From a virus: DNA of 18,525 nucleotides. Positions 903 through 17,119 of this stretch are shown piece by piece (the stretch's first letter is position 1; each line of letters begins with the position of its first letter). The translations under genes were made by a program, and so were the position numbers. The notes under the pieces are model-generated. The model had not been told where the DNA came from and ran no database searches. It worked only from the letters and a program-made list of their open reading frames with translations. The DNA lies in UHGV virus genome UHGV-0171332. One strand, written 5' to 3'.

Positions 903-1086
903 TTGCCCGTGCAGGGCAAAAATCGTAGATTATGCGCGGGTGTCTTTCGGCTGATGGCTGGAAGGTGAACCTGAAGGCCTGATGTGGAAAGGCCCCGAGT
1001 CAAACATTTTGTTTAACCCGAGGCCCTAACCATCATACCTTAAGCAAGTAGAAGGTTAGCGCCTCTCCACTCAGGAGGCAAGCGCT

Positions 1087-1227
1087 ATGTCGCAAAAATC
1101 GCTCATCACCGTCACAATTTGTATGACGGTAATCTTCACCATCTGGATGTTACACGGCTCGTTGTGTGAGTTCCGGCTGAATTTGTGGGGAGCGGAGTTT
1201 GCGGCGTTCTTACAGTGTAAGCAGTAG
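1087..1227 (+). CDS. Hok/Gef-family type I toxin-like small membrane protein (46 aa), not in the supplied ORF track
   Basis: ATG at 1087 preceded by AGGAGG (1073-1078). Translation is MSQKSLITVTICMTVIFTIWMLHGSLCEFRLNLWGAEFAAFLQCKQ: an N-terminal hydrophobic helix followed by the SLCE[FIV]R and E[FV]AAF motifs recalled from Hok, Gef/HokC and RelF/HokD. The SD lies inside a predicted stem (1058-1086). Confidence 0.6.
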   Translation: MSQKSLITVTICMTVIFTIWMLHGSLCEFRLNLWGAEFAAFLQCKQ

Positions 1228-1236
1228 GAAAACCGC

Positions 1237-1258
1237 GACGGGGACGAAAGTCCCCGTC
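1237..1258 (+). other. GC-rich stem-loop with GAAA tetraloop, 3' of the hok-like ORF (RNA structural element, no U-tract)
   Basis: Perfect 9-bp inverted repeat GACGGGGAC / GTCCCCGTC around a GAAA loop, 10 nt after the stop codon. It is not followed by a T-run, so it looks more like a stabilising or processing hairpin than a canonical intrinsic terminator. Confidence 0.4.
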
Positions 1259-1307
1259 AACTGGTTGCTGAGGTTCAGCCGATATGGCACCCGTTTCTGG
1301 TGAGAGA

Positions 1308-1685
1308 ATGGACGACAAAATTCTCCGGTATATGCAGCGTGTTGTGAGAAATTCCCGCAACCCTGAATTTATGAATGAAGTTAAAGACGCCTGCCTTAAA
1401 AAGCAGGCGTTTTGTTTTGAGGCACCTGATGGCTTTCTGGTGCTGCGTTCTGTGCTCAGTGCTGATGGTATCCCTTATGTTTTGGTGTTGCTGGGCGTGT
1501 GTACGGGGAGTAACAGCGTTGAGCGTTATCTGCCGGAGGTGAAGACATTAACCCGTCTGGCTGGCGGACGCTGGGCTGAATTTCATACGGCAAGACGGGG
1601 ATTTATCCGGCTGGGAAAACGTCTGGGCTTTGAGCGAATGCCGGATGATGAGGATGGCTTCATGGTGTTCAGGATAGCGGTCTGA
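1308..1685 (+). CDS. Hypothetical protein (125 aa; alternative start at 1284 gives 133 aa)
   Basis: Intact ORF. The ATG at 1308 has a purine-rich GGTGAGAGA stretch just upstream; the ATG at 1284 has GAGG further upstream. No motif recognised. It is bracketed by the 1237-1258 hairpin and the terminator at 1737-1760. Confidence 0.5.
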   Translation: MDDKILRYMQRVVRNSRNPEFMNEVKDACLKKQAFCFEAPDGFLVLRSVLSADGIPYVLVLLGVCTGSNSVERYLPEVKTLTRLAGGRWAEFHTARRGFIRLGKRLGFERMPDDEDGFMVFRIAV

Positions 1686-4487: not shown

Positions 4488-7400
4488 ATGGCTTATTCCG
4501 ATGAACAGCGCCCTGAAGCGCAATTTGGCAACCAGAGCCGCAACAGCCTGAACATTCAGCAGCCGGGAGAGACTGACAGCTATGATGTGTTTTTCTCCGA
4601 TCCCAATCGCTGGAAGGACAACAGCACGTCGTTCAGCCTGGGCGATGTATTGCCAACTATGGGGAAAGGTGTCGCCCAGTCCGTCCGGGGGACAGGGGAA
4701 ATGGCCCGTGGACTCGGTGATGCGATGATTCAGAGCCCGGTAAAAACAGGGGTACGTATTTTAAATGAGTTCAGCCGTATGGGGCTGCCGGGAGTCGCAA
4801 CTGTTCAGGATATTTTTGTCGGTGGCAGCAAGGGGGCGGATGAGGTCATCGACACTCTGCCTGATGGAAAAAATGCGGTTACTGATACTGTCGGTAAAGG
4901 TCTGAAGGTCACAGGCAAGGCCGTCAGTGGCGGCGCTAAAGCCTCGGATGAATGGCTGACTGGCAAGATGTCGCCGGGGGCGCAGCGGGCGCTGAATACA
5001 CCGATGACTGAAGGATATGATGATTCAGCGGTCTGGGTAGCGAAAGGGGTTAACCTGATTGGTGCGCTTGTACCGGATATGGTTGCAGGCGGTGTGACTA
5101 AAAAGCTGGGTGATGTCACTCTGCGAAAAGTGCTGACCGCCGGGCTGGAGAAAAAATACATCGCGGCAGGGATGCAGCCGGAAAGAGCCACAGCACTGGC
5201 AGCCGAAGCTGTCGATAAAAAAATGCCGGATTTTTTCCAGGCAGGCCTGATCACCCATTCCACTGTCAGTGCGCAAGGGCGGAGTGCAATGGCAGCGGCA
5301 GATGCTGTTCTTAACGCGGATTATTCTGAGCTGGCGAAGTCACCGAAATTTCAGCAGACCTTTTTGTCAATTGATGCAGATCCGCAGCACGCGCAGCTTA
5401 CTGACCGCCAGAAAATGGACCTGGCAAAAGAGCGTGTTGCCGATGAGGTGCGTGCGCAGCTGGCAACCGATCCTGAATTGCTGGCTGTGAATGCCATGGC
5501 GGCAAAACTGGGCGATGCTCAGTTGCTTAATCTGGCGATGCGGGGCACGGCGAAGACCGTTAAAAGCGGCATTGTCAGAAATGCCACGGAACAGGGGACG
5601 ATTAATGCGGCGCAGGGTGGCTATTCACGCTATCAGGAAAACACGGCATTGCGTGAGACCGCCGGAATGGATGTGTCACCGTGGGAGGGCGTGGCTGACG
5701 CAACGATCGAAGGTGCAGCCCTTGGTGCTGCAATGGGGGCACCATTCGGTGCGGCTGCCGGATATCGTGGAAAACGTCAGGCGGCAGATGAAGCAGCCAT
5801 GCGTGAGGCTGAAAGCGTTCCTCAGGACGAATCGGCTCCGCAACCCGAACCGGTTGATCCGGTGGCACAGCATCGTGAATCTATGCAGGGGATGAATCGC
5901 GAGCAGCTTCTGGAACAGTATGCTGATGCGGATATGGCACATGAGGGAGACACGTCTGCCGTTCATCGCCGGGAAGCCGCCAGCCAGCTGTTGAATGAAC
6001 TGGATGAACAGGCGAAGCGACAGGCGGTGATGGATGAGCTGAAGGCGAAGCCGCGCCCTGAACTGCTTGAGGAATACCGAAAACTCAGCCAGAAGGAAGG
6101 GCGTACTGATACTGAAGAGCAGCAGTTACAGGCAATACGTGATGTGCTTCGCCCTCAGCGGGAGGCCAGACCGGAGGCACAGCCACAGCCGGAAAATGCG
6201 GATGATGGCGACGGGAGTATTTACCCGACGGTGCGGTTCCGCGATCCGGATGAAGTTCGTATTGAAATTAACGAGAGTGGTGCGTCCAGACCAGCAGAAC
6301 GCATTGAAAAGGTGCGTCCGGACAACCGTTATTTCACGGATGAAAAAAGTGCTCTGGGGAGCGACGTTTTCCGCAATGCCAGCGCCACCGGCCTGAAACC
6401 GTCCGTAGTGAAGAAAGGCGAGAATCAGTATGCCGTTGAAATGGATAATCCTGCGTTCTCTGAAGATGTGGCAACGGAGACCATTAACACTCTGGCTGAC
6501 GGAGAGCGTATTACTGATGCTGATCCGATGGAACAGCCCGCGTTCATGCGTGACCCGCGATTCCGTGGTTTTACGGGGGATGATACAGAAGTGCAGGCCC
6601 GTCTTGCTCGTGGCAACGCGCCGACGGCGGAAGAACTGGTGCGTTCCCAGATGGCTGAAGGTGATGCCGGTCCGACAGCACAGGAGTTAACTGAGCGTCC
6701 ACGCCTTCCCGCTCCCGGCGATATTCATCCCGGACAGGGATATCCGTTACCAGGAGAAGTAGCGCGTACGCCGGATGAAAATCAGGCCGGACGTGGTGGT
6801 CGTTTTACCACAACCGGTGAGGTGAAGGGCCAGAGTTTCCAGAAAGGACGTGCGCAGGCACCGGAAAATGCCGCTGGTCGCCAGGGGGAAATACTGGAGG
6901 GCGAAACAGTTCGTCGTGGTCTGCCGTCACCGGATGAGCAGAACGCCACAGCACCAGTGCGTGAAGGTCTTCCTGCACCTGAAAGTCAGCGTGGGGTTGA
7001 TATGCCACAGCCTGAATCACTCCCTCGTATGGTTCGTGACTCCCTTCCGGAACTGGCACAGCAGGCAGAAGCACGCAGACAGACCGGGGATAATCGCCAG
7101 ACCATAACCGATGTTCCGGATACTGAGGTGCCGGTGCCGGTAGATAAACCGAGCACTCACCAGCAGGCGCGTGGTGCGAAAATTGAAGACTTTGGCGAGG
7201 AGATTAAGGGCGCGGCAAAACACCGTTATGCGCAGCTTGCTGAAGCTATGGGTAAAACGCTGGAGGATGGGGAGTACGCGACACAACCACTGAGCAAACT
7301 GTTTCCAAAGCCGGATTATGCCCGTCTGGAAAAAGAAGGTGTGGATAGTGACACGCTGGCAATGATGGCGTTGTATCGCAGTGAAATTCCCACCAGAACA

Positions 7401-10400
7401 AGCCGTAACATGCAGAAATGGATCAGCATTGTTAAAAGCGGTCGCGAAGCTACTGCCGGTATGCTGGAGGGGAAAATTCCGGCAGCGAAACTGGCTGATA
7501 TGATGGACAGTAAGCCGGGGTTACGGAGCATGTCGGATACCTGGAAACTGCTCCGTACGCTTTCTGCATTGCAGATTGATAAAGCATCCGGCTATCGTGT
7601 CAGGTCCGGTGTTTATTCGTTTGTCGGGGGAAAACGTTACGATCCGCCGCAAATGATGTATTCGCTTCGTGATAGCAAGGGGCGCGACCTCTTTTTCTCG
7701 GAAAGCCGGGATGAGTTACTGAAAAAGGCGAAAGCATATTTCGATGAACAAGGCTCCAGAGAAAGGGAAACGCCAGCAACCTCTGCTGATGACAGAATAA
7801 CCTTTGACGTGTACCGGCATAAGGCCAGTGGCGACATTTTTATCGGTTATGGCAAAAACAGGCAGAAACTGAAGGGCGGTTTTGAGTCTGCCCGTGATGC
7901 ACATGATTATGTGCGCACACATCGTGATGAGCTGGTTAATCAGGTGAAGGCGCTGCGTGAAGTCTCGCGTGAGGAGCAGCGTAACGCCACCAACCGCGAT
8001 CGTACCGGACCAGAACGCCGCAAGGGGGATGTTTCGCCGGAGCAGTTCAGTGATGCGTTTGGTTTTCGTGGTGTGCAGTTTGGTAATTATGTGGAAAGTC
8101 CGCGTCGTCAGGCTGATTTGAACCGGGCTTATGACTCGCTGCATGACCTGGCTGACGTGCTGAACGTGCCGACAAAAGCGCTTTCTCTGAACGGTCGTCT
8201 TGGGCTTGCTTTTGGTGCCCGTGGTAAGGGTAAGGCGGCGGCACACTATGAGCCGGGTGAGGTGGCAATCAACCTGACAAAAGGTAACGGACCGGGGGCG
8301 CTGGCCCACGAATGGTTCCATTCACTGGATAATTATTTTGGTCGTTATGATGTTTCCACTGACGGGAAGATCACGTCAGGTGGCGACTATATGACGGAAG
8401 CACAGCGTGCCGGGCGCGTATTTAAAGACGGCAGGTATGTTGATGCGGAATATCCGGTACGTCAGGAGGTTTACGACGCGTTTAAAGGCGTGATGAAAGC
8501 CATTAACAGCAGTGACATGTTGCGTCGTTCTGAACGCCTGGATGGCGTTCGTTCAAAACCGTACTGGTCAACGGATGTTGAAATGGCGGCGCGAGCCTTT
8601 GAGCGTTATGTTCAGGATAAAGCGCGTATGGCTGGCGTGGAGAATGATTATCTGGTCAATATCCGTAAGGCGGATGACCATGGACAGCCGGACACCTACG
8701 CTTATCCGACGAATGCAGAACTGGATGGCGGTATTCGTGAGGCATTCGATCACTTGTTCCGAACACTGAAAACCCGTGAGACGGACAAGGGAGTTGCGTT
8801 TTATTCCCGTAAGGGCGTGACCCGCACACCTGAAGGCAATCTGATTTCGGATGTTAACCGCAGTGCGGAAGCCAAAGGCAGTCCGGTCCCGCAGGTTGAA
8901 GCTGTTGCCCGTGGCGTGATTAGTGGCATTAAGGACAGTGACCTGAAGGTCCGCGTGGTGAAGTCACAGAAAGAGGCTGAAGCACTGGCGGGTGAATCAT
9001 TCGACGGTTACGGCAAGGTGCACGCGTTCTATCGTCCGGATAAACGTGAAATTGTCCTGGTGGCGGATAACATCCCTGACGGGCGGACCGTTCGCGAGAA
9101 GTTACGTCACGAGATTATTCACCATGCAATGGAGCATGTAGTCACGCCAGCGGAATATCAGACGATTATTAAGACCGTGCTGAAAACCCGTGACAGTGAT
9201 AACGCCACCATCCGTGAAGCCTGGCGTAAGGTTGATGCGTCTTATGGTAAGGAATCACCGGAAGTGCAGGCGGGTGAATTTCTGGCGCATATGGCAGAGA
9301 AGCAGCCGATTAAATTCGTGGCGGCATGGGAGCGTGTTGTTGCCCTGGTCAAAGGGGTACTGCGTCGTACGGGGTTACTGAAGCCGACGGAACTGAACGA
9401 TATCAGACTTGTTCGCGAAACTATTCGCACGTTAGGCCAGCGTGTGCGGGAAGGTTACACGCCGCGTGAGGATGGCGCGGACGCATCGTCTCAGTACTCC
9501 CGTAGCGGTAAGCCTGATCCGTTCAAAGTGCCGGAAGGTGAGGGCGAGCGTTATCGTGATGACCTTGCCAGAATGATGAAGTCTCTGCGCACCACAGATT
9601 TAACGGTAAACATCGGGCGTACGCCGCCGGTATTGCGTCACCTTGGCGCACCAGATTTGCCGCTGGTTATCTCCCGCGACACTGTGCGTAAGGCCACCAA
9701 TGGAGTGAAACATGTGGTGCCGATGGATGTTATCGAGAGACTACCGGAACTGATGCACGATCCGGATGCAATTTACCGTTCCGCGACAGAAAGAAATGCG
9801 GTTGTGATGCTGCTTGATGCCATGGATAAAAATGGTGATCCTGTAGTGTCAGCGGTACACATGAAGGCTGTCCGGTCGCGCCTGGAAATCAACAAGGTAG
9901 CTTCGGTTTACGGTACGGAAGGAGGAATGAATAAGGCAAATAGTCTGGATAAAGCCGGATTAACGCTTTACCGGAAGAAAAAATTAAGCCGCGATAACCT
10001 TCTGCACAGAGGGCTTCAATTGCCCAAAGGGGAACATTCTTATCGCGGCTCTGTAGATAAAATACTCTATCCTGAAGATATTCGCAAGGGGCCGTATTAC
10101 TCCCGCACCAGCAGTCTGACGCCGGAAGAGACAATTGCATCCCGTTTTGTTCGCCAGATGCAGGATAAATTCCAGGTGCTGAAGGCGGTGCAGGAGAATA
10201 TCCGTAAAACTGGCGGAAAAATAGATGACAGCAATAACGCCTATATGGCTGAAGAACTCTTCCACGGGAAGGCGGAAAACGACCTGAACGTAATGAAGGA
10301 GCGCTACGTTCAGCCGCTGGCCAAATTGCTGGCGGACTACAAAATTGCGCAGGCCGATCTGGATGAGTACCTCTACGCCCGTCACGCGCCGGAACGTAAC

Positions 10401-12842
10401 GCGCATATTGCGAAAATCAACCCGAAAATGCCGGACGGCGGTTCGGGGATGACCAACGCGGAAGCGGCGGAAATCATGCAGCGTGTGCGTAACAGCGGCA
10501 AACAGGCACAGTATGACCGTCTGGCAGGGATTATTGACGATATGCTGGCCCGTCGCCGTGAGATTATCCGTGAGGCAGGACTGGAAGAGAGCGGCGTGGT
10601 GGATGCCTGGCAGAAAGCCTACCGTTACTACGTCCCCCTGAAAGGGCAGGATGTTGACGGTGTGGTGTCACTGCCACGTACAGGCAAGGGATTCACCATC
10701 GGCGGGCGTGAAAGTAAGCAGGCCATGGGGCGTGCATCCCGCGCACAGTCTCCTTCCACTCAGGCGATACAGGATTTGAGTGAATCGCTGATCCGCAATC
10801 GCAAAAATGAAGTGGGTAACGCCTTCCTGAAACTGGTACAGGATAATCCCGACAAGGATTACTGGCAGGTATTCACTGATGACAGACCGGATACAATGCG
10901 TGTGATTGCAGAGCGCAAGGACCAGGAAACTGGTGAAACCATTCGCGAAGTTGTCGAGCGCCCTGTGCCGATGGCAATGATGGCGGATCGCTACTTCACC
11001 ACCAAAAAGGACGGCAAAACTTACTACATTAAACTTCATGATCCGCGCCTGATGCGTGCGATGAAGAACATGGGGCCGGAAACCAGTAACGCCGTAATCC
11101 GTACGCTGGGGAAAGTTAACCGCTTCCTGGCAACGGTGAACACGTCGTATAACCCGGAATTTCTGGTCAGTAACTTCATCCGTGACGTGCAGACTGCGGT
11201 GATGAACCTGAAGGCTGAGCAGGGAAGAAGCGACGGCAAACTGAAAGGGCTGGATAACTTATCCGCGCTGGCTGTGGTGAAAGACAGCCGTTCCGCCATG
11301 TCAGCCGTATACGCAAGTCTGCGGGGTAAAACCCTCACGGGCAAAGGCGCACAGTGGCAGAAAGTGTGGAAAGAGTTTGTTGAGGACGGAGGTAAAACCG
11401 GCTGGTTTAACATGGGTGACCTTGAGGGCCAGCAGAAGGAAATGGATCGCCTTGTGTCGCTGGCGAAGGGCGGATGGAAAGGCCAGAGTATCGGTGCATG
11501 GCATTCGTTCCTGAACCTGGTCGAGGATGCCAACGGCGCGGTTGAAAACGCTCTGCGTCTTTCTGCCTATAAACACGCCCGTGATGCCGGTTTGTCACGC
11601 CAGCAGGCGGCGTCTCTTGCCAAAAACATGACGGTGAACTTTAACCGTCGTGGTGAGCAGGGGATGCTGATGAACTCGCTGTACATGTTTGCCAACGCCA
11701 GCATTCAGGGGACCGCAAACCTGGTGAGAACGCTCGGACATCTTAATGGCGACGGGCCGTTACTGGAGCGCCTTCGCTGGAAGAATCTCAATGTACCGCA
11801 GAAAATCGTGCTTGCAGCTGTGGGAGCGGGTTATCTGCTTGGCTCGCTTAACCGCAGTGTGGCGGGTGAGGATGATGACGGGGTTAACTGGTACGACAAA
11901 GTACCGTCTCATGTGAAAGAGCGTAACCTCGTCATCATGAAATCGATGTTCGGGGGCAAGGCCGGTGAGTACTGGAGTATTCCTCTGCCTTACGGGTACA
12001 ACGTGTTCTTCCTGCTTGGTCATACAGCTGAAGGTGTGGCAGCGGGCGACCTGACTGCTTCACGTGCTGCCGGTAATGTTGTCGGCGGTATCCTGGGAGC
12101 ATTCAGCCCGATCGGCAGCGAGACGTCGGAAACGTTGTCGGGGGCATTGCTGAAAAACGCAGCACCGACCATTCTGCGTCCGTTTGCGAACCTTGCCATG
12201 AATGAAAACTTCATGGGGGCGCAGATTTACCAGGAGAACATGCCGTTTGGTACACCAAAACCTGACAGCCAGCTGGGAAGACGTTCAACGCCAGAAGCGT
12301 ACAAGGCGTTTGCATCCTGGCTGAATGCGTTCTCAGGTGGCAGCCAGTATCGTCCCGGCGCGGTGGATATCACACCGGAATCGCTGAAATTCTGGATTGA
12401 CTATATCTCCGGAGGGACAGGGCGCTTCATTTCCAAAACCACGGATGCGGCGGTGAAATCGCTGAATGGTATTGATATACCGGAACAGCAGGTGCCCTTC
12501 CTGGGGAAAATTTCGGGTGAGGTGATGCCGTATGCAGACCAGCAGAAGATGTACGACCGGATGACAGAGGTTGCGCAGTATCACGCAGAGCTGAAGAGTC
12601 TGACCGGTGCAGAAAGAACGGCGTTCATTGACGAGAACAACGGAAAATTGTTGATGAACGGGCTTATGCAGGATACCCGGAAGAGACTGAAGGATTTGCG
12701 CAAACAGCGCGATGCCATTTATGCCGACAGTTCTCTCAGTCTGGCGCAGCAGGCGGCGATGGTGAAATCGGTAGAGCGGGATATGAAGGTTGCCGTGGAT
12801 CGGTTTAACCGCGAGTACAACAAAAAAGTGGGAGTGGATTAA
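4488..12842 (+). CDS. Giant multi-domain protein (2784 aa) with two HExxH (zincin-like) motifs, a Pro/Glu/Gln-rich low-complexity linker and hydrophobic Gly/Ala segments; function unknown
   Basis: Uninterrupted 8355-nt ORF with GGAG SD. HEWFH at aa 1274-1278 (nt 8307-8321) and HEIIH at aa 1541-1545 (nt 9108-9122). Gly/Ala hydrophobic stretch EGAALGAAMGAPFGAAAGY at aa 408-426 (nt 5709-5765). C-terminal hydrophobic segments near aa 2438-2454 and 2529-2545. No Walker A or methyltransferase motif seen. Coding status is high confidence; functional assignment is low. Confidence 0.85.
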   Translation: MAYSDEQRPEAQFGNQSRNSLNIQQPGETDSYDVFFSDPNRWKDNSTSFSLGDVLPTMGKGVAQSVRGTGEMARGLGDAMIQSPVKTGVRILNEFSRMGLPGVATVQDIFVGGSKGADEVIDTLPDGKNAVTDTVGKGLKVTGKAVSGGAKASDEWLTGKMSPGAQRALNTPMTEGYDDSAVWVAKGVNLIGALVPDMVAGGVTKKLGDVTLRKVLTAGLEKKYIAAGMQPERATALAAEAVDKKMPDFFQAGLITHSTVSAQGRSAMAAADAVLNADYSELAKSPKFQQTFLSIDADPQHAQLTDRQKMDLAKERVADEVRAQLATDPELLAVNAMAAKLGDAQLLNLAMRGTAKTVKSGIVRNATEQGTINAAQGGYSRYQENTALRETAGMDVSPWEGVADATIEGAALGAAMGAPFGAAAGYRGKRQAADEAAMREAESVPQDESAPQPEPVDPVAQHRESMQGMNREQLLEQYADADMAHEGDTSAVHRREAASQLLNELDEQAKRQAVMDELKAKPRPELLEEYRKLSQKEGRTDTEEQQLQAIRDVLRPQREARPEAQPQPENADDGDGSIYPTVRFRDPDEVRIEINESGASRPAERIEKVRPDNRYFTDEKSALGSDVFRNASATGLKPSVVKKGENQYAVEMDNPAFSEDVATETINTLADGERITDADPMEQPAFMRDPRFRGFTGDDTEVQARLARGNAPTAEELVRSQMAEGDAGPTAQELTERPRLPAPGDIHPGQGYPLPGEVARTPDENQAGRGGRFTTTGEVKGQSFQKGRAQAPENAAGRQGEILEGETVRRGLPSPDEQNATAPVREGLPAPESQRGVDMPQPESLPRMVRDSLPELAQQAEARRQTGDNRQTITDVPDTEVPVPVDKPSTHQQARGAKIEDFGEEIKGAAKHRYAQLAEAMGKTLEDGEYATQPLSKLFPKPDYARLEKEGVDSDTLAMMALYRSEIPTRTSRNMQKWISIVKSGREATAGMLEGKIPAAKLADMMDSKPGLRSMSDTWKLLRTLSALQIDKASGYRVRSGVYSFVGGKRYDPPQMMYSLRDSKGRDLFFSESRDELLKKAKAYFDEQGSRERETPATSADDRITFDVYRHKASGDIFIGYGKNRQKLKGGFESARDAHDYVRTHRDELVNQVKALREVSREEQRNATNRDRTGPERRKGDVSPEQFSDAFGFRGVQFGNYVESPRRQADLNRAYDSLHDLADVLNVPTKALSLNGRLGLAFGARGKGKAAAHYEPGEVAINLTKGNGPGALAHEWFHSLDNYFGRYDVSTDGKITSGGDYMTEAQRAGRVFKDGRYVDAEYPVRQEVYDAFKGVMKAINSSDMLRRSERLDGVRSKPYWSTDVEMAARAFERYVQDKARMAGVENDYLVNIRKADDHGQPDTYAYPTNAELDGGIREAFDHLFRTLKTRETDKGVAFYSRKGVTRTPEGNLISDVNRSAEAKGSPVPQVEAVARGVISGIKDSDLKVRVVKSQKEAEALAGESFDGYGKVHAFYRPDKREIVLVADNIPDGRTVREKLRHEIIHHAMEHVVTPAEYQTIIKTVLKTRDSDNATIREAWRKVDASYGKESPEVQAGEFLAHMAEKQPIKFVAAWERVVALVKGVLRRTGLLKPTELNDIRLVRETIRTLGQRVREGYTPREDGADASSQYSRSGKPDPFKVPEGEGERYRDDLARMMKSLRTTDLTVNIGRTPPVLRHLGAPDLPLVISRDTVRKATNGVKHVVPMDVIERLPELMHDPDAIYRSATERNAVVMLLDAMDKNGDPVVSAVHMKAVRSRLEINKVASVYGTEGGMNKANSLDKAGLTLYRKKKLSRDNLLHRGLQLPKGEHSYRGSVDKILYPEDIRKGPYYSRTSSLTPEETIASRFVRQMQDKFQVLKAVQENIRKTGGKIDDSNNAYMAEELFHGKAENDLNVMKERYVQPLAKLLADYKIAQADLDEYLYARHAPERNAHIAKINPKMPDGGSGMTNAEAAEIMQRVRNSGKQAQYDRLAGIIDDMLARRREIIREAGLEESGVVDAWQKAYRYYVPLKGQDVDGVVSLPRTGKGFTIGGRESKQAMGRASRAQSPSTQAIQDLSESLIRNRKNEVGNAFLKLVQDNPDKDYWQVFTDDRPDTMRVIAERKDQETGETIREVVERPVPMAMMADRYFTTKKDGKTYYIKLHDPRLMRAMKNMGPETSNAVIRTLGKVNRFLATVNTSYNPEFLVSNFIRDVQTAVMNLKAEQGRSDGKLKGLDNLSALAVVKDSRSAMSAVYASLRGKTLTGKGAQWQKVWKEFVEDGGKTGWFNMGDLEGQQKEMDRLVSLAKGGWKGQSIGAWHSFLNLVEDANGAVENALRLSAYKHARDAGLSRQQAASLAKNMTVNFNRRGEQGMLMNSLYMFANASIQGTANLVRTLGHLNGDGPLLERLRWKNLNVPQKIVLAAVGAGYLLGSLNRSVAGEDDDGVNWYDKVPSHVKERNLVIMKSMFGGKAGEYWSIPLPYGYNVFFLLGHTAEGVAAGDLTASRAAGNVVGGILGAFSPIGSETSETLSGALLKNAAPTILRPFANLAMNENFMGAQIYQENMPFGTPKPDSQLGRRSTPEAYKAFASWLNAFSGGSQYRPGAVDITPESLKFWIDYISGGTGRFISKTTDAAVKSLNGIDIPEQQVPFLGKISGEVMPYADQQKMYDRMTEVAQYHAELKSLTGAERTAFIDENNGKLLMNGLMQDTRKRLKDLRKQRDAIYADSSLSLAQQAAMVKSVERDMKVAVDRFNREYNKKVGVD

Positions 12843-13270: not shown

Positions 13271-14197
13271 TCATTGGCGTACCTCCTTCGGCGGTTCTGG
13301 TAGCGGCATCCAGTGGGTTACTTCTTTGAGATGCAGGTCTTCGCCATCACCGTCATCCCAAGTGGGATTGCCATCATTAAACCAGTCGCCATATACGCCG
13401 ACCTGAGTGTTGGGGATGCTTGGTGGGTAGTTGTTTTTAAAGTCAGCTGCTAACACATAGTATTGTCGCTCTCCCATTTCTGGCATTCGATCACTACAGC
13501 TTATCCAACCATCCGGAGTTACCGGAACTGGCGGAACGGCTGTTTGCTCTCGAACGTCATTAGTCGCTATCGGTTCTGCTGCCAACTGACTGGCATATTT
13601 GTTAATGGTAACGATAAGCTCTTGCTCAGCCTCATCCAGACAATCACCGATACCTCGCCTGTCACCGTCAAAATCATCGAAATCGGCACGAATCTTGGCA
13701 ACCTTCAGGATTGCGGACAACACCTCACTAGGAATTACCGGATAGTTGGTTGACGTTTCCGCGATTTCCCGAAAATTATTGGTTGACGAATTCTTGTTTT
13801 CCCGAAAGTTTCCGGACTGAAGCATAGCGGCACGGCAGGCGTTCCAGCCTCTCACCTCTGCAATAGCGGCAACAGCATCAACCGCGTACATGCTAAGAGG
13901 ATTAGGCATTGGTTTTTCTTCCGGTACTACTGGTGCTGGAGGGGCGGCGTAAATGCCCTCTATCACTAAATGTTTGCGCTCAAAATCATCTGGCTCTCGA
14001 TGATATACGTAACTCCAATCACCAAGGTTATCATTGCGCCTGCAACGGAAACCTATCGGCTCGGCTTCCAGCGCTGCCAGTGCAATTCGTGCCAGTTCTT
14101 CCGCTTCTTCTGCTGGCAGTACAACGTTGCTACCCGGTCCGTATGTTTCGCGCCACTGCTTGATTGTCAGCAGTCGCCCTTTGGTAATAGTGATCAT
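13271..14197 (-). CDS. DUF551-domain protein, Ead/Ea22-region type (308 aa)
   Basis: C-terminal region DGWISCSDRMPE...YYVLAADF...THWMPLPEPP matches the DUF551 signature as I recall it. Its stop lies at the convergence junction and its start overlaps the upstream gene stop by 4 nt (ATGA), indicating an operon. Confidence 0.7.
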   Translation of the reverse strand: MITITKGRLLTIKQWRETYGPGSNVVLPAEEAEELARIALAALEAEPIGFRCRRNDNLGDWSYVYHREPDDFERKHLVIEGIYAAPPAPVVPEEKPMPNPLSMYAVDAVAAIAEVRGWNACRAAMLQSGNFRENKNSSTNNFREIAETSTNYPVIPSEVLSAILKVAKIRADFDDFDGDRRGIGDCLDEAEQELIVTINKYASQLAAEPIATNDVREQTAVPPVPVTPDGWISCSDRMPEMGERQYYVLAADFKNNYPPSIPNTQVGVYGDWFNDGNPTWDDGDGEDLHLKEVTHWMPLPEPPKEVRQ

Positions 14198-14709
14198 GCC
14201 GCGTTTCCTTCTTTCTTATTAACAATCACACCGTCATATATTTCATTAAGGTGCCCTCTCAACTCCATGCGCCTTAATGCAGATAACATGTAATCGCATT
14301 CAACCTGCTTATTCCCAGTAAATGGCTTATCGTCAGGATTACCCCAACAGCAATTACCCCTGGGCCATCCATGTACTTTCCGTACTCTTCCGTTAACAAC
14401 GTGAAGTAATCCCCAGCCGGGAGGTAAATCCTCAACTGAAATAATTTCCGGCTCACTAATAAAGAATCGCCAGTCGCCCATGCCAAGTGAGGGATTTTTA
14501 CGGAAACGCTTTTTTCTATCTGCCAACAAGTCAGCACGAGAACACTTCGCCTCTATCAGGCATGATGCTGAATTTCTGAATCCCATAGCATCTGGCTGTT
14601 CTCCGGTACTGGTTACAGCTATAAAGCGGTCATGAAAACAAACCTTGAACCCGTTGCGCTTAAGGAACTTGTACGCAATCTGACAGAGTTCGCGGTGTGT
14701 TAATGCCAT
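14194..14709 (-). CDS. Hypothetical protein with PD-(D/E)xK nuclease-like motif (171 aa)
   Basis: Motif EQPD...(12 aa)...LIEAK: a PD followed by ExK at spacing typical of the restriction-endonuclease-like fold. The C-terminal half is Cys/Trp-rich. Fold assignment is an inference from motif only. Confidence 0.55.
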   Translation of the reverse strand: MALTHRELCQIAYKFLKRNGFKVCFHDRFIAVTSTGEQPDAMGFRNSASCLIEAKCSRADLLADRKKRFRKNPSLGMGDWRFFISEPEIISVEDLPPGWGLLHVVNGRVRKVHGWPRGNCCWGNPDDKPFTGNKQVECDYMLSALRRMELRGHLNEIYDGVIVNKKEGNAA

Positions 14710-14710
14710 A

Positions 14711-15412
14711 TCACTCTCCTTTGATGCGAATGCCAGCGACGCGTAATGCGTGTTCTAGGTCAATCAGGTAAAGCCAACTGCCATTTTCTTTAGGTATCAT
14801 GACGTGGCGCTCATCATCATTTATCGGATGTCCATATCGAAGGCCGTAGCGAGTCGGCAAATGAACTTCCCGCGTTTCCAGCTCTTTAACGCGTTCCTCC
14901 AGTTCGTAGACCCTGCATTGTTCTCTATCATCAATCAGATATAACCCAAGACATTCGCTTTCTACCCAACCGCCAAAATCATGATCGTAACGCTCACATG
15001 AAAACTCACCGTCACCGTCCTTTGTTGGAATGGTGTAACTATCTAATGGGCCACCATATGTCGGCACATTTCCCAATGTTGGATGCTCAATCCACATGAA
15101 AAATGTACGTCCGGTTATTGGGCAAATATCTGGCCGCCATTGGTTACGAACAGCCTTGGTTTCGGATAATTCTTCAGCGTGTTGTTTTACTTCCTCAAGC
15201 TCAACACGCAGCTTCCCAACCGTAAGAGCAATTTCCTCGTTCTCCTGGTCGCGGCGTTTGATGTATTGCTGGTTTCTTTCCCGCTCATCCAGCAGTTCCA
15301 GCACAATCGATGGTGTTACCAATTCATGGAAAAGGTCTGCGTCAAATCCCCAGTCGTCATGCATTGCCTGCTCTGCCGCTTCACGCAGTGCCTGAGAGTT
15401 AATTTCGCTCAC
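14711..15412 (-). CDS. Ead/Ea22-like family protein (233 aa)
   Basis: N-terminus MSEINSQALREAAEQAMHDDWGFDADLFHELVTPSIVLELLDERE followed by a charged coiled-coil-like stretch, as recalled for Ea22-like proteins of E. coli lambdoid prophages. The 4-nt overlap (ATGA) with the upstream TraR-like gene fits lambda early-left organisation. Confidence 0.7.
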   Translation of the reverse strand: MSEINSQALREAAEQAMHDDWGFDADLFHELVTPSIVLELLDERERNQQYIKRRDQENEEIALTVGKLRVELEEVKQHAEELSETKAVRNQWRPDICPITGRTFFMWIEHPTLGNVPTYGGPLDSYTIPTKDGDGEFSCERYDHDFGGWVESECLGLYLIDDREQCRVYELEERVKELETREVHLPTRYGLRYGHPINDDERHVMIPKENGSWLYLIDLEHALRVAGIRIKGE

Positions 15413-15630
15413 TTCGAACCTCTCTGTTTACTGATAAGCTCCAGATCTTCCTGGCAACTTGCACAAGTCCGACAACCCTGAACGACCAGGCGTCTTCGTT
15501 CATCTATCGGATCGCCACACTCACAACAATGAGTGGCAGATATAGCCTGGTGGTTCAGGCGGCGCATTTTTATTGCTGTGTTGCGCTGTAATTCTTCAAT
15601 TTCTGATGCTGAATCAATGATGTCTGCCAT
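15409..15630 (-). CDS. TraR/DksA-family C4 zinc-finger protein (73 aa), phage TraR-like (lambda orf73-type)
   Basis: CCECGDPIDERRRLVVQGCRTCASCQ contains the CxxC...CxxC zinc ribbon with the conserved acidic tip of the DksA/TraR family. The size matches phage and plasmid TraR proteins. Confidence 0.8.
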   Translation of the reverse strand: MADIIDSASEIEELQRNTAIKMRRLNHQAISATHCCECGDPIDERRRLVVQGCRTCASCQEDLELISKQRGSK

Positions 15631-15680
15631 CTTCCATTAATCCCTGAATTGTTGGTTAATACGCTTGAGGGTGAATGCGA

Positions 15681-15707
15681 ATAATAAAAAAGGAGCCTGT
15701 AGCTCCC
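15681..15707 (-). terminator. Intrinsic terminator on the minus strand inside the early-left-like cluster
   Basis: On the minus strand: GGAGC / GCTCC stem with a 5-nt loop followed by a T-rich tract (TTTTTTATTATT), between the stop of the 15729-15944 ORF and the TraR-like start. Confidence 0.45.
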
Positions 15708-15728
15708 TGATGATTTTGCTTTTCATGT

Positions 15729-15944
15729 TCATCGTTCCTTAAAGACGCCGTTTAACATGCCGATTGCCAGGCTTAAATGAGTCGGTGTGAATCCCATCAG
15801 CGTTACCGTTTCGCGGTGCTTCTTCAGTACGCTACGGCAAATGTCATCGACGTTTTTATCCGGAAACTGCTGTCTGGCTTTTTTGATTTCAGAATTAGCC
15901 TGACGGGCAATGCTGCGAAGGGCGTTTTCCTGCTGAGGTGTCAT
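15729..15944 (-). CDS. Hypothetical small protein (71 aa from internal ATG; the ORF track extends it to 16010, 93 aa)
   Basis: Intact ORF in the early-left-like cluster. Start is ambiguous: the ATG at 16010 has no SD and sits 10 nt after the upstream stop; the ATG at 15944 has a weak GGGA upstream. No motif recognised. Confidence 0.45.
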   Translation of the reverse strand: MTPQQENALRSIARQANSEIKKARQQFPDKNVDDICRSVLKKHRETVTLMGFTPTHLSLAIGMLNGVFKER

Positions 15945-16020
15945 TGAACAAGTCCCATGTCGGCAAGCATAAGCACACAGAATATGAAGCCCGCTGCCAG
16001 AAAAATGCATTCAGTGGTTG

Positions 16021-16212
16021 TCATACCTGGTCTCTCTCATCTGCTTCTGCTTTCGCCACCATCATTTCCAGCTTTTGTGAAAGGGATGCGGCTAACGTGT
16101 GAAATTCTTCGTCTGTTTCTACTGGTATTGGCACAAACCTGACTCCAATTTGAGCGAGGCTATGTGCCATCTCGATACTCGTTCTTAACTTAACGGTAGA
16201 TGCTTTGTGCAT
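16021..16212 (-). CDS. Hypothetical small protein (63 aa), lambda orf63-like by position and size
   Basis: Internal ATG at 16212 preceded by a G7 tract. The long form of the track ORF (to 16458) would overlap the ren start and its promoter region, so it is disfavoured. Assignment to the lambda orf63 family is by length and position only. Confidence 0.45.
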   Translation of the reverse strand: MHKASTVKLRTSIEMAHSLAQIGVRFVPIPVETDEEFHTLAASLSQKLEMMVAKAEADERDQV

Positions 16213-16321
16213 ACAGCCCCCCCATTTATTATTTATCTCCTCAGCCAGCCGCTGTGCTTTCAGGGGATTTCGGATTACAGAAAGGCCGGGAAATACCCAG
16301 CCTCGCTTTGTAACGGAGTAG

Positions 16322-16420
16322 ACGAAAGTGATTGCGCCTAAACCTCTAAATCGTGCACAGGCTCTGGCGAAGATCGCAGAAATTAAAGCTAAGTTCGGAC
16401 TGAAAGGAGCAAGTGTATGA
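16322..16420 (+). pseudogene. Possible 3' remnant of an upstream replication-region gene (lambda P-like position) ending in an ATGA overlap with ren
   Basis: A 33-codon open frame (TKVIAPKPLNRAQALAKIAEIKAKFGLKGASV*) with no start codon; its stop overlaps the ren ATG as in stop-start coupled phage operons. Identity as a P fragment is inferred from synteny only. Confidence 0.25.
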
Positions 16421-16719
16421 CGGGCAAAGAGGCAATTATTCATTACCTGGGGACGCATAAGAGCTTCTGTGCACAGGACGTTGCCGCGGTAACAGGCGCA
16501 ACCGTAACCAGCATAAATCAGGCTGCGGCTAAAATGGCGCGGGCAGGAATCCTGGTCGTTGATGGTAAGGTCTGGCGAACGGTGTATTACCGGTTCGCTA
16601 CCAGAGAAGAACGGGAAGGAAAGGTGAGCACGAATCTGATTTTTAAGGAGTGTCGCCAGAGTGCCGCGATGAAACGGGTATTGAGGGTATATAAAAGAAC
16701 ATCAATGGGTACACAATGA
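16417..16719 (+). CDS. ren: Ren-like protein (100 aa)
   Basis: SD AAAGGAG upstream. The sequence MTGKEAIIHYLGTH...VTSINQAAAKMARAG...VWRTVYYRFATREEREGK matches my recollection of lambda Ren (not searched). It sits immediately upstream of emrE, as renD does in DLP12. Confidence 0.6.
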   Translation: MTGKEAIIHYLGTHKSFCAQDVAAVTGATVTSINQAAAKMARAGILVVDGKVWRTVYYRFATREEREGKVSTNLIFKECRQSAAMKRVLRVYKRTSMGTQ

Positions 16720-16786
16720 TGAAACAGGTGAGTTGAGTTCAAACTGTAGTACAATTCTCTCCAGTTTGAACAGGAAAGAATATGCT

Positions 16787-17119
16787 ATGAACCCTTATAT
16801 TTATCTTGGTGGTGCAATACTTGCAGAGGTCATTGGTACAACCTTAATGAAGTTTTCAGAAGGTTTTACACGGTTATGGCCATCTGTTGGTACAATTATT
16901 TGTTATTGTGCATCATTCTGGTTATTAGCGCAGACGCTGGCTTATATTCCTACAGGGATTGCTTATGCTATCTGGTCAGGAGTCGGTATTGTCCTGATTA
17001 GCTTACTGTCATGGGGATTTTTCGGCCAACGGCTGGACATGCCAGCCATTATAGGCATGATGTTGATTTGTGCCGGAGTGTTGGTTATTAATTTATTGTC
17101 ACGAAGCACACCACATTAA
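16787..17119 (+). CDS. emrE: EmrE small multidrug resistance (SMR) efflux transporter (110 aa)
   Basis: MNPYIYLGGAILAEVIGTTLMKFSEGFTRLWPSVGTIICYCASFWLLAQTLAYIPTGIAYAIWSGVGIVLISLLSWGFFGQRLD...STPH is near-identical to E. coli EmrE as I recall it, including the catalytic Glu14 in helix 1. The track's TTG start at 16733 adds 18 non-conserved residues and is rejected. Confidence 0.92.
   Translation: MNPYIYLGGAILAEVIGTTLMKFSEGFTRLWPSVGTIICYCASFWLLAQTLAYIPTGIAYAIWSGVGIVLISLLSWGFFGQRLDMPAIIGMMLICAGVLVINLLSRSTPH

Follow-up and report, generated by a model that had tools for sequence, protein, structure and literature searches.

Positions 903–1294 of the window (the whole stretch of 18,525 nucleotides of virus genome UHGV-0171332 analysed here) probably constitute a functional hok/sok-type type I toxin–antitoxin module, a reading to which we would attach a probability of about 0.8. 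In the best explanation, the module belongs to a HokA-like, mok-less subfamily with a toxin of 46 aa, and it is an accessory gene lying between lom and an L0129-like gene in a Stx prophage of the 933W type (Sepvirinae). The ORF itself is almost certainly a Hok-family gene with a hok-type mRNA. The initial annotation had already proposed a module of the hok/sok type, and this proposal is now supported by a profile match and by a long-range RNA pairing that co-varies; its claim to novelty, on the other hand, was overstated, since the gene is in RefSeq and an identical peptide has been reported to be toxic. The features of the locus are collected in Table 1.

Table 1. Observed and predicted features of the module and its 3' flank, in window coordinates.
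Feature	Position	Strand	Description
Predicted hok promoter	903–931	+	-35 TTGCCC (903–908), 17-nt spacer, -10 TAGATT (926–931); just 3' of the lom terminator
Full-length hok mRNA core	936–1294	+	5' end inferred at ~936–938; 1294 is the last base of fbi
tac-like 5' element	936–954	+	GCGGGUGUCUUUCGGCUGA; pairs with 1275–1294 in the full-length fold and with 987–997 after 3' truncation
ucb-like box	987–997	+	GAAAGGCCCCG; GGCCCCG (991–997) pairs with CGAGGCC (1019–1025), with a C.A mismatch, in the full-length fold
Predicted Sok-like antisense RNA	~1046 to 985	-	~60 nt; both ends inferred by homology and perhaps off by a few nt
Target hairpin of processed mRNA	1020–1065	+	GAGGC/GCCUC and CUAACC/GGUUAG, 1020–1031/1054–1065; apical loop 1039–1047
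Predicted sok promoter	1053–1081	-	-35 TTGCCT (reverse complement of 1076–1081), 17-nt spacer, -10 TAACCT (reverse complement of 1053–1058)
SD-sequestering hairpin	1058–1086	+	anti-SD 1058–1068 against AGGAGG 1073–1078 and 1082–1086
hok-family toxin ORF	1087–1227	+	ATG start, 46 aa, peptide MSQKSLITVTICMTVIFTIWMLHGSLCEFRLNLWGAEFAAFLQCKQ
GC hairpin	1237–1258	+	9 bp, GACGGGGAC-GAAA-GTCCCCGTC; predicted 3' protective stem of the processed hok mRNA
fbi-like 3' element	1275–1294	+	UCAGCCGAUAUGGCACCCGU; pairs with tac; 7 of 8 inner-helix pairs changed on both sides
First downstream terminator-like site	1387–1418	+	ACGCCTGC-N8-GCAGGCGT plus TTTTGTTTT; inside ORF 1284–1685

The Toxin Gene and Its Family

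The elements on which the initial annotation was built, namely the short ORF, its AGGAGG Shine–Dalgarno (SD) sequence, the stem enclosing the latter, and the GC stem with a GAAA loop behind the ORF, are all present as it described them. The SD sequence lies 8 nt 5' of the ATG. Residues 6–22 of the peptide (LITVTICMTVIFTIWML) are hydrophobic, SLCEF occupies residues 25–29, and C44 lies within LQCKQ, so that the peptide has the shape of a Hok/Gef toxin: around 50 aa, an N-terminal hydrophobic helix, an L-C-E motif, and a second cysteine in the tail. A survey of Hok homologues (bioRxiv 10.1101/2025.08.07.668861) gives L30/C31/E32 and a Cys or Tyr at logo position 48 as the residues conserved in the family. 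The same source reports that both cysteines are directly encoded in HokA too, whereas other Hok mRNAs need TadA editing for one of them; here, C27 and C44 are each coded directly by TGT, so no TadA editing is needed.

The initial annotation had staked its assignment to the Hok/Gef family on a profile search, and this search proved positive: the peptide matches Pfam HOK_GEF (PF01848) over profile positions 6–42 of 42 with 33.2 bits against a gathering cut-off of 22 (E = 4e-8). A database search yielded 56 related protein clusters from E. coli, Shigella, and Salmonella, most of them exactly 46 aa long, and every cluster with a source name is named as Hok/Gef family. In 31 distinct homologues, nine residues are invariant (M1, Q3, K4, C27, A39, L42, Q43, C44, and K45) and 14 others nearly so. 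An alignment with known toxins, which had also been suggested, placed HokA of K-12 closest among those compared (45% identity over 47 aa), followed by HokW (37% over 35 aa) and R1-type Hok (30%). The more specific NCBIfam models were not reached: the score was 38.4 bits for the HokA equivalog NF007290 (cut-off 89), which was the better of the two Hok models, and 22.7 bits for the Hok subfamily NF007279 (cut-off 73), a model built around R1-type Hok. By its sequence, the peptide is thus to be regarded as HokA-like, but not as HokA.

Overexpression of the ORF had been put forward as an experiment, and it has already been carried out by others on an identical peptide, reportedly with a positive result. 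In the survey mentioned above (bioRxiv 10.1101/2025.08.07.668861), this peptide is entry 72_1589 of the high-abundance cluster 72 in Table S2 and was cloned under an arabinose promoter as plasmid LRP157. According to the survey text, 42 of the 45 Hok homologues tested were toxic on overexpression in E. coli, and the three non-toxic ones are named; 72_1589 is not among them and is, by exclusion, reported as toxic. Sok, mok, and the structure of the mRNA were deliberately left out of that survey.

The description of the gene as unannotated is right for the original 933W record and for many phage deposits, but not for RefSeq/PGAP, which names it, in complete E. coli genomes, as "Hok/Gef family protein" (WP_000078907.1). 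Of 5426 such genomes, 1550 contain the 441-bp region, in as many as 7 copies, and it is also present in 198 phage records, mostly of Stx-converting Sepvirinae; the identical peptide occurs in 129 phage records. Labels such as "MokW-like host killing" or "prophage host toxic membrane protein" are found in some of the phage records, and in many the gene is not annotated. The 933W reference record has the identical ORF at 45660–45797, between lom and L0129, with no feature annotated there. Searching the literature by RefSeq accession, or for hok in connection with 933W, returned nothing on the locus between lom and L0129. The gene and its peptide are, then, already known, and the gene call alone adds nothing new, the gene being named already in over a quarter of the complete E. 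coli genomes. What is added here to the published survey consists only of regulatory details (the placement of Sok, the absence of mok, a proposed direct SD switch, and a lost terminator); of these, control without mok and the lack of a terminator in 933W-type surroundings appear to be undescribed. The gene call has a practical use in that many deposited Stx-phage records, including that of reference 933W, omit this 141-bp gene.

Limits, Promoters, and Context of the Module

The initial annotation named lom as the upstream neighbour, and ORF 117–854 is indeed an Ail/Lom gene (Pfam, 105.5 bits). The lom terminator, listed by a terminator scan, is a hairpin at 877–897 followed by a T run. Immediately behind it lies the predicted hok promoter, the hexamers and spacing of which are kept in most homologous loci and align with those of the hokW and R1-like promoters. 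A consensus promoter scan with a 9-of-12 rule listed neither this promoter, which matches 8 of 12, nor the sok promoter discussed below; because both fall below the rule, their placement rests on homology. Among loci in unrelated contexts, homology starts at the promoter and ends 2–3 nt past GGCACCC, and it is on this basis that the module is delimited as ~903–1294.

The module has the orientation of lom and the surrounding late genes. In the 933W-type context, there is no terminator directly 3' of fbi, and the first site is found 93–124 nt further on, inside an ORF (Table 1), the annotated start of which lies in fbi; elsewhere, P2-like contexts included, fbi is followed by an intrinsic terminator within 20–35 nt. 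In the 933W-type context, the primary hok transcript may end at this first site, 1387–1418. Since no terminator follows fbi there, the real 3' end of the transcript, and hence the route by which it would be processed, is uncertain.

Two Mutually Exclusive Folds of the hok mRNA

For the comparison of RNA structures, loci were collected via exact-protein look-ups from Stx phages, P2-like phages and prophages, Salmonella, Citrobacter, and E. albertii. A scan of genome contigs gave only 7 loci, 3 of which stood under implausible organism names and are probably contamination. The structural alignment comprised 15 diverse loci; two others, L023 and L024, were left out as having lost the 5' tac region.

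The Rfam model RF01794 (sok/hok leader) matches 938–1098 on the + strand over its full length (model positions 1–157) with 35.1 bits (E = 9.4e-5), which does not reach its gathering threshold of 59. Other members of the subfamily score 36–57 bits, the R1-like locus 87.2, and hokW 113.5. In the hokW and R1-like controls, it is the sense strand that is matched, whereas sokW is annotated on the minus strand; the model therefore describes the sense-strand hok leader. The hok mRNA folds with a z-score of -6.7 relative to shuffled sequences.

RNA folding of the region had been suggested as a way of looking for long-range pairing of the tac/fbi kind; such pairing was found, and it co-varies across homologues. 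The predicted pairs (936–944/1286–1294 and 947–954/1275–1282) are kept in all 15 loci. In the same full-length fold, the cells of the alignment that correspond to the ucb/GAGG-box stem are 100% paired, and 2 of its pairs co-vary. In the minimum-free-energy fold of 936–1304, the SD hairpin consists of 1058–1062/1082–1086 and 1064–1068/1074–1078, with a pairing probability of 1.0 for the SD bases 1074–1077; its cells are 97% and 69% paired in the two halves across the 15 loci. The start codon of hok is itself paired with 1198–1207 in this fold. Overall, 88.6% of cells are paired in the full-length fold, a figure that drops to 34–50% with slid partners, and in 22 pairs both bases have changed.

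The GC hairpin behind the stop codon stands where R1 and hokW have their own hairpins, its cells are 98.5% paired, and 5 of its 9 pairs show compensatory changes. In R1, the counterpart stem protects the processed hok mRNA from 3' exonucleases (PMC9841398), and by analogy the hairpin here is predicted to be the homologue of this protective stem. That it might instead be the intrinsic terminator of hok was considered and rejected: there is no T run on the + strand, and the hairpin both co-varies and matches the stem at the R1 processed end. The terminator scan lists it on the minus strand only.

When the transcript is cut, in silico, at 1258–1274, the predicted minimum-energy fold switches from tac/fbi to tac/ucb (937–948/987–997) together with a target hairpin. 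The cells of the latter are 97% paired, with one compensatory change from G-C to A-U, and RNAalifold independently picked it as a consensus structure. Within it, GAGG at 1020–1023 is the counterpart of the mok SD of R1, here with no mok start behind it. In the truncated fold as a whole, 92.4% of cells are paired in the 15 loci, and 12 pairs are doubly changed. Each partner of tac, fbi as well as ucb, co-varies with the same tac columns, and in one locus (L025) three alternately pairing positions (columns 58, 89, and 129) have changed together. Such coupled covariation is the pattern expected from the hok folding pathway as summarised in PMC9841398. Covariation across the 15 loci thus backs both of the modelled structures and shows two mutually exclusive folds of a hok-family mRNA. 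For a transcript ending at 1235, tac is predicted to be held in a local 5' hairpin, as in the metastable form of R1.

A Predicted Sok Antisense and the Absence of mok

The initial annotation did not place the antisense RNA and suggested looking for it opposite 1000–1090. A Sok-like RNA is now predicted, by homology, to start inside this interval: the minus strand of 985–1046 aligns with the annotated sokW of 933W and with the Sok strand of the R1-like locus. The predicted RNA has a free 11-nt 5' tail and a stem of ~18 bp followed by UUUCC (z-score -6.2), a fold that resembles that of sokW, and its tail is complementary to the apical loop of the target hairpin. In its putative promoter, both hexamers recur letter for letter in the sokW region of 933W, and they are 17 nt apart, as in sokW and in the R1-like locus. 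AGGTTA, the complement of the -10 hexamer, is invariant in 14 of the 15 loci; the exception, AGGATA, corresponds to TATCCT, as in R1. Like the ends of this RNA, its existence and the trimming of the hok mRNA at the 3' end are predictions.

A mok frame had not been placed either, and none exists at the locus, all three frames being closed between 1041 and 1059. Neither the window nor 12 of the 15 homologues have an ORF starting with ATG, GTG, or TTG that extends to the hok SD, and in the other three such ORFs are at non-homologous positions; in the hokW and R1-like controls, the same scan finds an ATG at -57. Around 16 nt are missing here where these two loci carry the mok ATG. A near-cognate start, AUC at 1032, was rejected as a candidate, as it opens an ORF of 3 codons that the homologues do not keep. 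The subfamily as a whole, with its loci in E. coli, Salmonella, Citrobacter, and E. albertii, has lost mok. In R1, Hok is synthesised only if mok is translated as far as the hok SD (PMC9841398). Without mok, this mechanism cannot apply unchanged, so the logic of control must differ, and Sok cannot act by blocking the translation of mok.

A Possible Control of hok without mok

How, then, might hok be controlled? In the scheme suggested by the two folds, a weak constitutive promoter would give a stable full-length mRNA in which tac is paired with fbi and the strong SD of hok is locked in its hairpin. Slow trimming of the 3' end as far as the GC hairpin would free tac, which would then pair with ucb and so release the GAGG box (1019–1025). 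The box would in turn capture the anti-SD (1060–1065), whereby the Sok target hairpin would form and the ribosome-binding site of hok would become cheaper to open. An unstable Sok would bind the target loop through its free 5' tail, and the duplex would presumably be cut by RNase III. With Sok covering the GAGG box, the anti-SD would return to the SD, such that hok would be controlled directly, with no mok leader. The loss of Sok, be it through loss of the prophage, a block to transcription, or antisense interference due to read-through from the late operon after induction, would allow Hok to be made and the inner membrane to be depolarised.

Folding energies are in the direction that such a switch would call for. 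The computed cost of opening the TIR (1070–1092) is 16.2 kcal/mol in the full-length fold, 11.7 in the truncated one, and 16.1 in the truncated one with 985–1046 blocked. The direction is the same in 11 of the 15 homologues, and 4 of them do not have the predicted pattern. In the truncated fold, the predicted pairing probability of the SD is still high, in weak 3-bp stems. On the strength of such modelling, the direct anti-SD switch, in which tac/ucb pairing frees the GAGG box, the box captures the anti-SD, and Sok reverses this, stands a little short of an even chance. Cleavage of the Sok duplex by RNase III may be sufficient by itself.

A wider proposal, which we put forward tentatively and would not back at even odds, is that the 46-aa HokA-like cluster is a natural mok-less form of hok/sok in which the relic of the mok SD, the GAGG box, is re-used as an anti-anti-SD and Sok shuts the hok ribosome-binding site directly; in 933W-type Stx phages, the terminator would have been lost and the module embedded in the late operon, so that a second Hok beside HokW could affect the timing of lysis and the release of Stx2 and phage. 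Regulation without mok, if confirmed, would extend the hok/sok paradigm in a modest but clear-cut way.

Alternative Readings of the Locus

One alternative concerns the role of the module rather than its identity and, at the level of RNA, does not conflict with the best explanation. The module might be a helper of lysis in the late phase, like hokW, rather than a system for addiction or maintenance of the prophage: Q-antiterminated read-through would flood the cell with hok sense RNA and silence or outcompete Sok, and Hok would then speed the failure of the membrane and the release of phage and Stx. That late read-through after induction raises the level of sense RNA and interferes with Sok is speculation, which would fit the induction-dependent production of HokW. 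This role would agree with an orientation shared with lom and the downstream late genes, and with the fact that the only terminator is that of lom in front, the module having none of its own behind. Moreover, hokW has been found to be produced after induction and to roughly double phage release (PMC8621323). However, this reported effect is modest, and the same module is also found outside any late operon, at P2-like prophage ends, where it has a terminator of its own, so its role cannot be specific to a late-operon position. Lysis assistance as the proper role of the module is, on balance, unlikely.

Another possibility is that the locus is a regulatory relic, with an intact ORF never translated from its native mRNA as a result of the deletion of the mok leader and the loss of the terminator, much like those chromosomal hok loci that are inactive in tests of post-segregational killing. 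The closed frames between 1041 and 1059 and the gap at the site of the mok AUG would fit with this, as would the missing terminator and the existence of frameshifted alleles of the hok ORF in some Stx phages. Chromosomal hokA, hokB, and hokC gave no killing in earlier work, as cited in the survey (bioRxiv 10.1101/2025.08.07.668861). Frameshifted alleles are, however, also to be expected of a gene that is costly when active. Furthermore, while the loss of mok extends to the whole subfamily, the ORF, a strong AGGAGG or GGAG SD, both folds, and the putative sok promoter are all maintained, compensatory changes included, a pattern that drift would not keep, and the peptide is identical in the 129 phage records. 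A relic therefore seems a very unlikely description of the locus, for which a functional mok-less module remains the preferred reading.

Finally, the idea of a small chance ORF with no toxin function beside an ordinary terminator hairpin, to which the shortness of the ORF and a codon-position variability that is not decisive for coding (variable sites at 30, 21, and 34 of 46 codons for positions 1, 2, and 3, thus not strongly concentrated at the third) lend a little colour, has a negligible probability and is already refuted by the Pfam match above its cut-off, the conserved residues, and the covariation of a GC hairpin that behaves as an RNA element, to which the reported toxicity of the identical peptide (in the survey text) may be added.

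Comparison with Known Systems

At the level of the protein, the 46-aa peptide is identical to cluster 72 entry 72_1589 and to WP_000078907.1, with no difference between them. With hokA/sokA of the E. coli chromosome, it shares the MxQK N-terminus and the WM, SLCE, and AAFLxCK motifs, as well as two directly encoded cysteines. HokA, however, has 50 aa and an annotated mokA frame, as against 46 aa and no mok frame here, and hokA/sokA is found at the chromosomal cspA–glyS site, whereas the present module is borne by a prophage.

The hokW-sokW module, of 933W and of Sakai prophage 5 (PMC8621323), comes from the same phage family, and 933W carries both modules. Their architecture is shared, with a promoter, a GCGGGTG 5' end, a sok promoter (here a predicted one) of the form TTGCCT-17-TAACCT, a GC hairpin after the stop codon, and fbi. 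Nevertheless, HokW has 51 aa and is accompanied by mokW, whereas the toxin here has 46 aa and no mok. In 933W, the characterised hokW-sokW-mokW (PMC8621323) lies at 58.4–58.8 kb on the minus strand, and the present locus at 45.66–45.80 kb on the other strand. That the two might be one and the same was rejected on the basis of their differing sequences, their positions ~13 kb apart in 933W, and the absence of the hokW start sequence from the window. Since hokW lies elsewhere in a genome that also has the identical ORF, a phage of the 933W type can have a pair of distinct hok modules. Studies of hokW in Sp5/933W have not taken into account the other module, the presence of which could hide the phenotypes of deletions.

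Finally, hok/sok of R1 is plasmid-borne and has mok, whereas the module here is prophage-borne and mok-less and has a strong SD of its own, AGGAGG, in front of hok; it also differs from R1 in that, in the 933W-type context, no terminator directly follows fbi. The order of the elements is nonetheless common to both, from tac/fbi and ucb through the GAGG box, the dcb-like anti-SD, and the Sok target hairpin to the 3' GC stem, together with a predicted metastable 5' hairpin (PMC9841398), and R1 even has the C.A mismatch of the ucb/GAGG stem.

Loss of the Terminator and the Downstream Reading Frame

In the P2-like and other prophage contexts that we collected (loci L006-L029), the hok module ends in a strong intrinsic terminator, which lies 20-35 nt past fbi, the 3' element of the hok mRNA. 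In the 933W-type context, for which positions 1295-1420 of the window were compared, a terminator directly after fbi is absent. The module has lost its terminator in the 933W-type context, and the homology between contexts therefore stops 2-3 nt past GGCACCC. The L0129-like ORF downstream of hok has another possible start, an ATG at 1308, which is preceded by GGTGAGAG; its profile searches against Pfam and NCBIfam gave no match.

Features of the window and natural frameshift alleles of hok in the collected loci
Feature	Position	Strand	Remarks
L0129-like ORF	1284-1685	+	PGAP annotation; the annotated start (1284) falls within fbi of hok
Terminator-like hairpin	1387-1418	+	ACGCCTGC-N8-GCAGGCGT then TTTTGTTTT; good; within the L0129-like ORF
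Single 2784-aa ORF	4488-12842	+	RefSeq annotation: LPD38 domain-containing protein
DUF551, Ead/Ea22-like, DUF1382/DUF1317 ORFs	13271-16458	-	Right part of window
Small-multidrug-resistance (SMR) family ORF	16733-17119	+	Right part of window
Frameshift allele	L015:901-1045		Stx2a phage Stx2_8243 group
Frameshift allele	L016:890-1040		Stx2_EH2011

The LPD38 domain-containing ORF takes up 45% of the window.

Alleles and Distribution of the Module

Phages TL-2011c and Stx2-86 (L013 and L014) carry a Hok allele that is just 54% identical (MPQKTIIVSILCITILMIVWMIHNSHCEFRLNIMWSQFAAFLQCKQ), around which the 5' and 3' untranslated regions are nearly identical. Diversification seems to be faster in the coding part of hok than in the RNA control regions. 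The protein P0005 appears to have arisen by recombination between the two alleles. Two natural frameshifts were found: an additional G (+1) within the GGGG run of hok, yielding a product of 44 aa that lacks the AEFAAFLQCKQ tail, and an 8-nt deletion past codon 3, which destroys the frame. The first frameshift group, that of Stx2_8243, comprises around 48 phage records, as assigned by tblastn identity band.

The enterobacterial phage module also occurs in genome contigs titled Xanthomonas pisi, Planococcaceae MAG, and Vagococcus sp. (L004, L005, and L007). The Xanthomonas pisi match is a 100% identical 857-bp contig, and the Planococcaceae MAG sequence contains a run of N; most likely, all three matches reflect assembly contamination.

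Comparison with Other hok Loci

In 933W, a second hok locus, hokW, lies around 13 kb downstream of the present one; it was looked for across the whole window and was not found. At the hokW locus (L017, 933W 58037-59486, reverse complement) and at an R1-like hok locus (L018), the Rfam model RF01794 matches the sense strand, at 703-877 and 332-503, respectively. Although the model is named “sok antitoxin”, its match covers the leader of the hok mRNA as far as the start codon (AUG) of hok, on the strand opposite to that of the annotated antisense RNA, sokW, and strand calls from RF01794 are therefore inverted.
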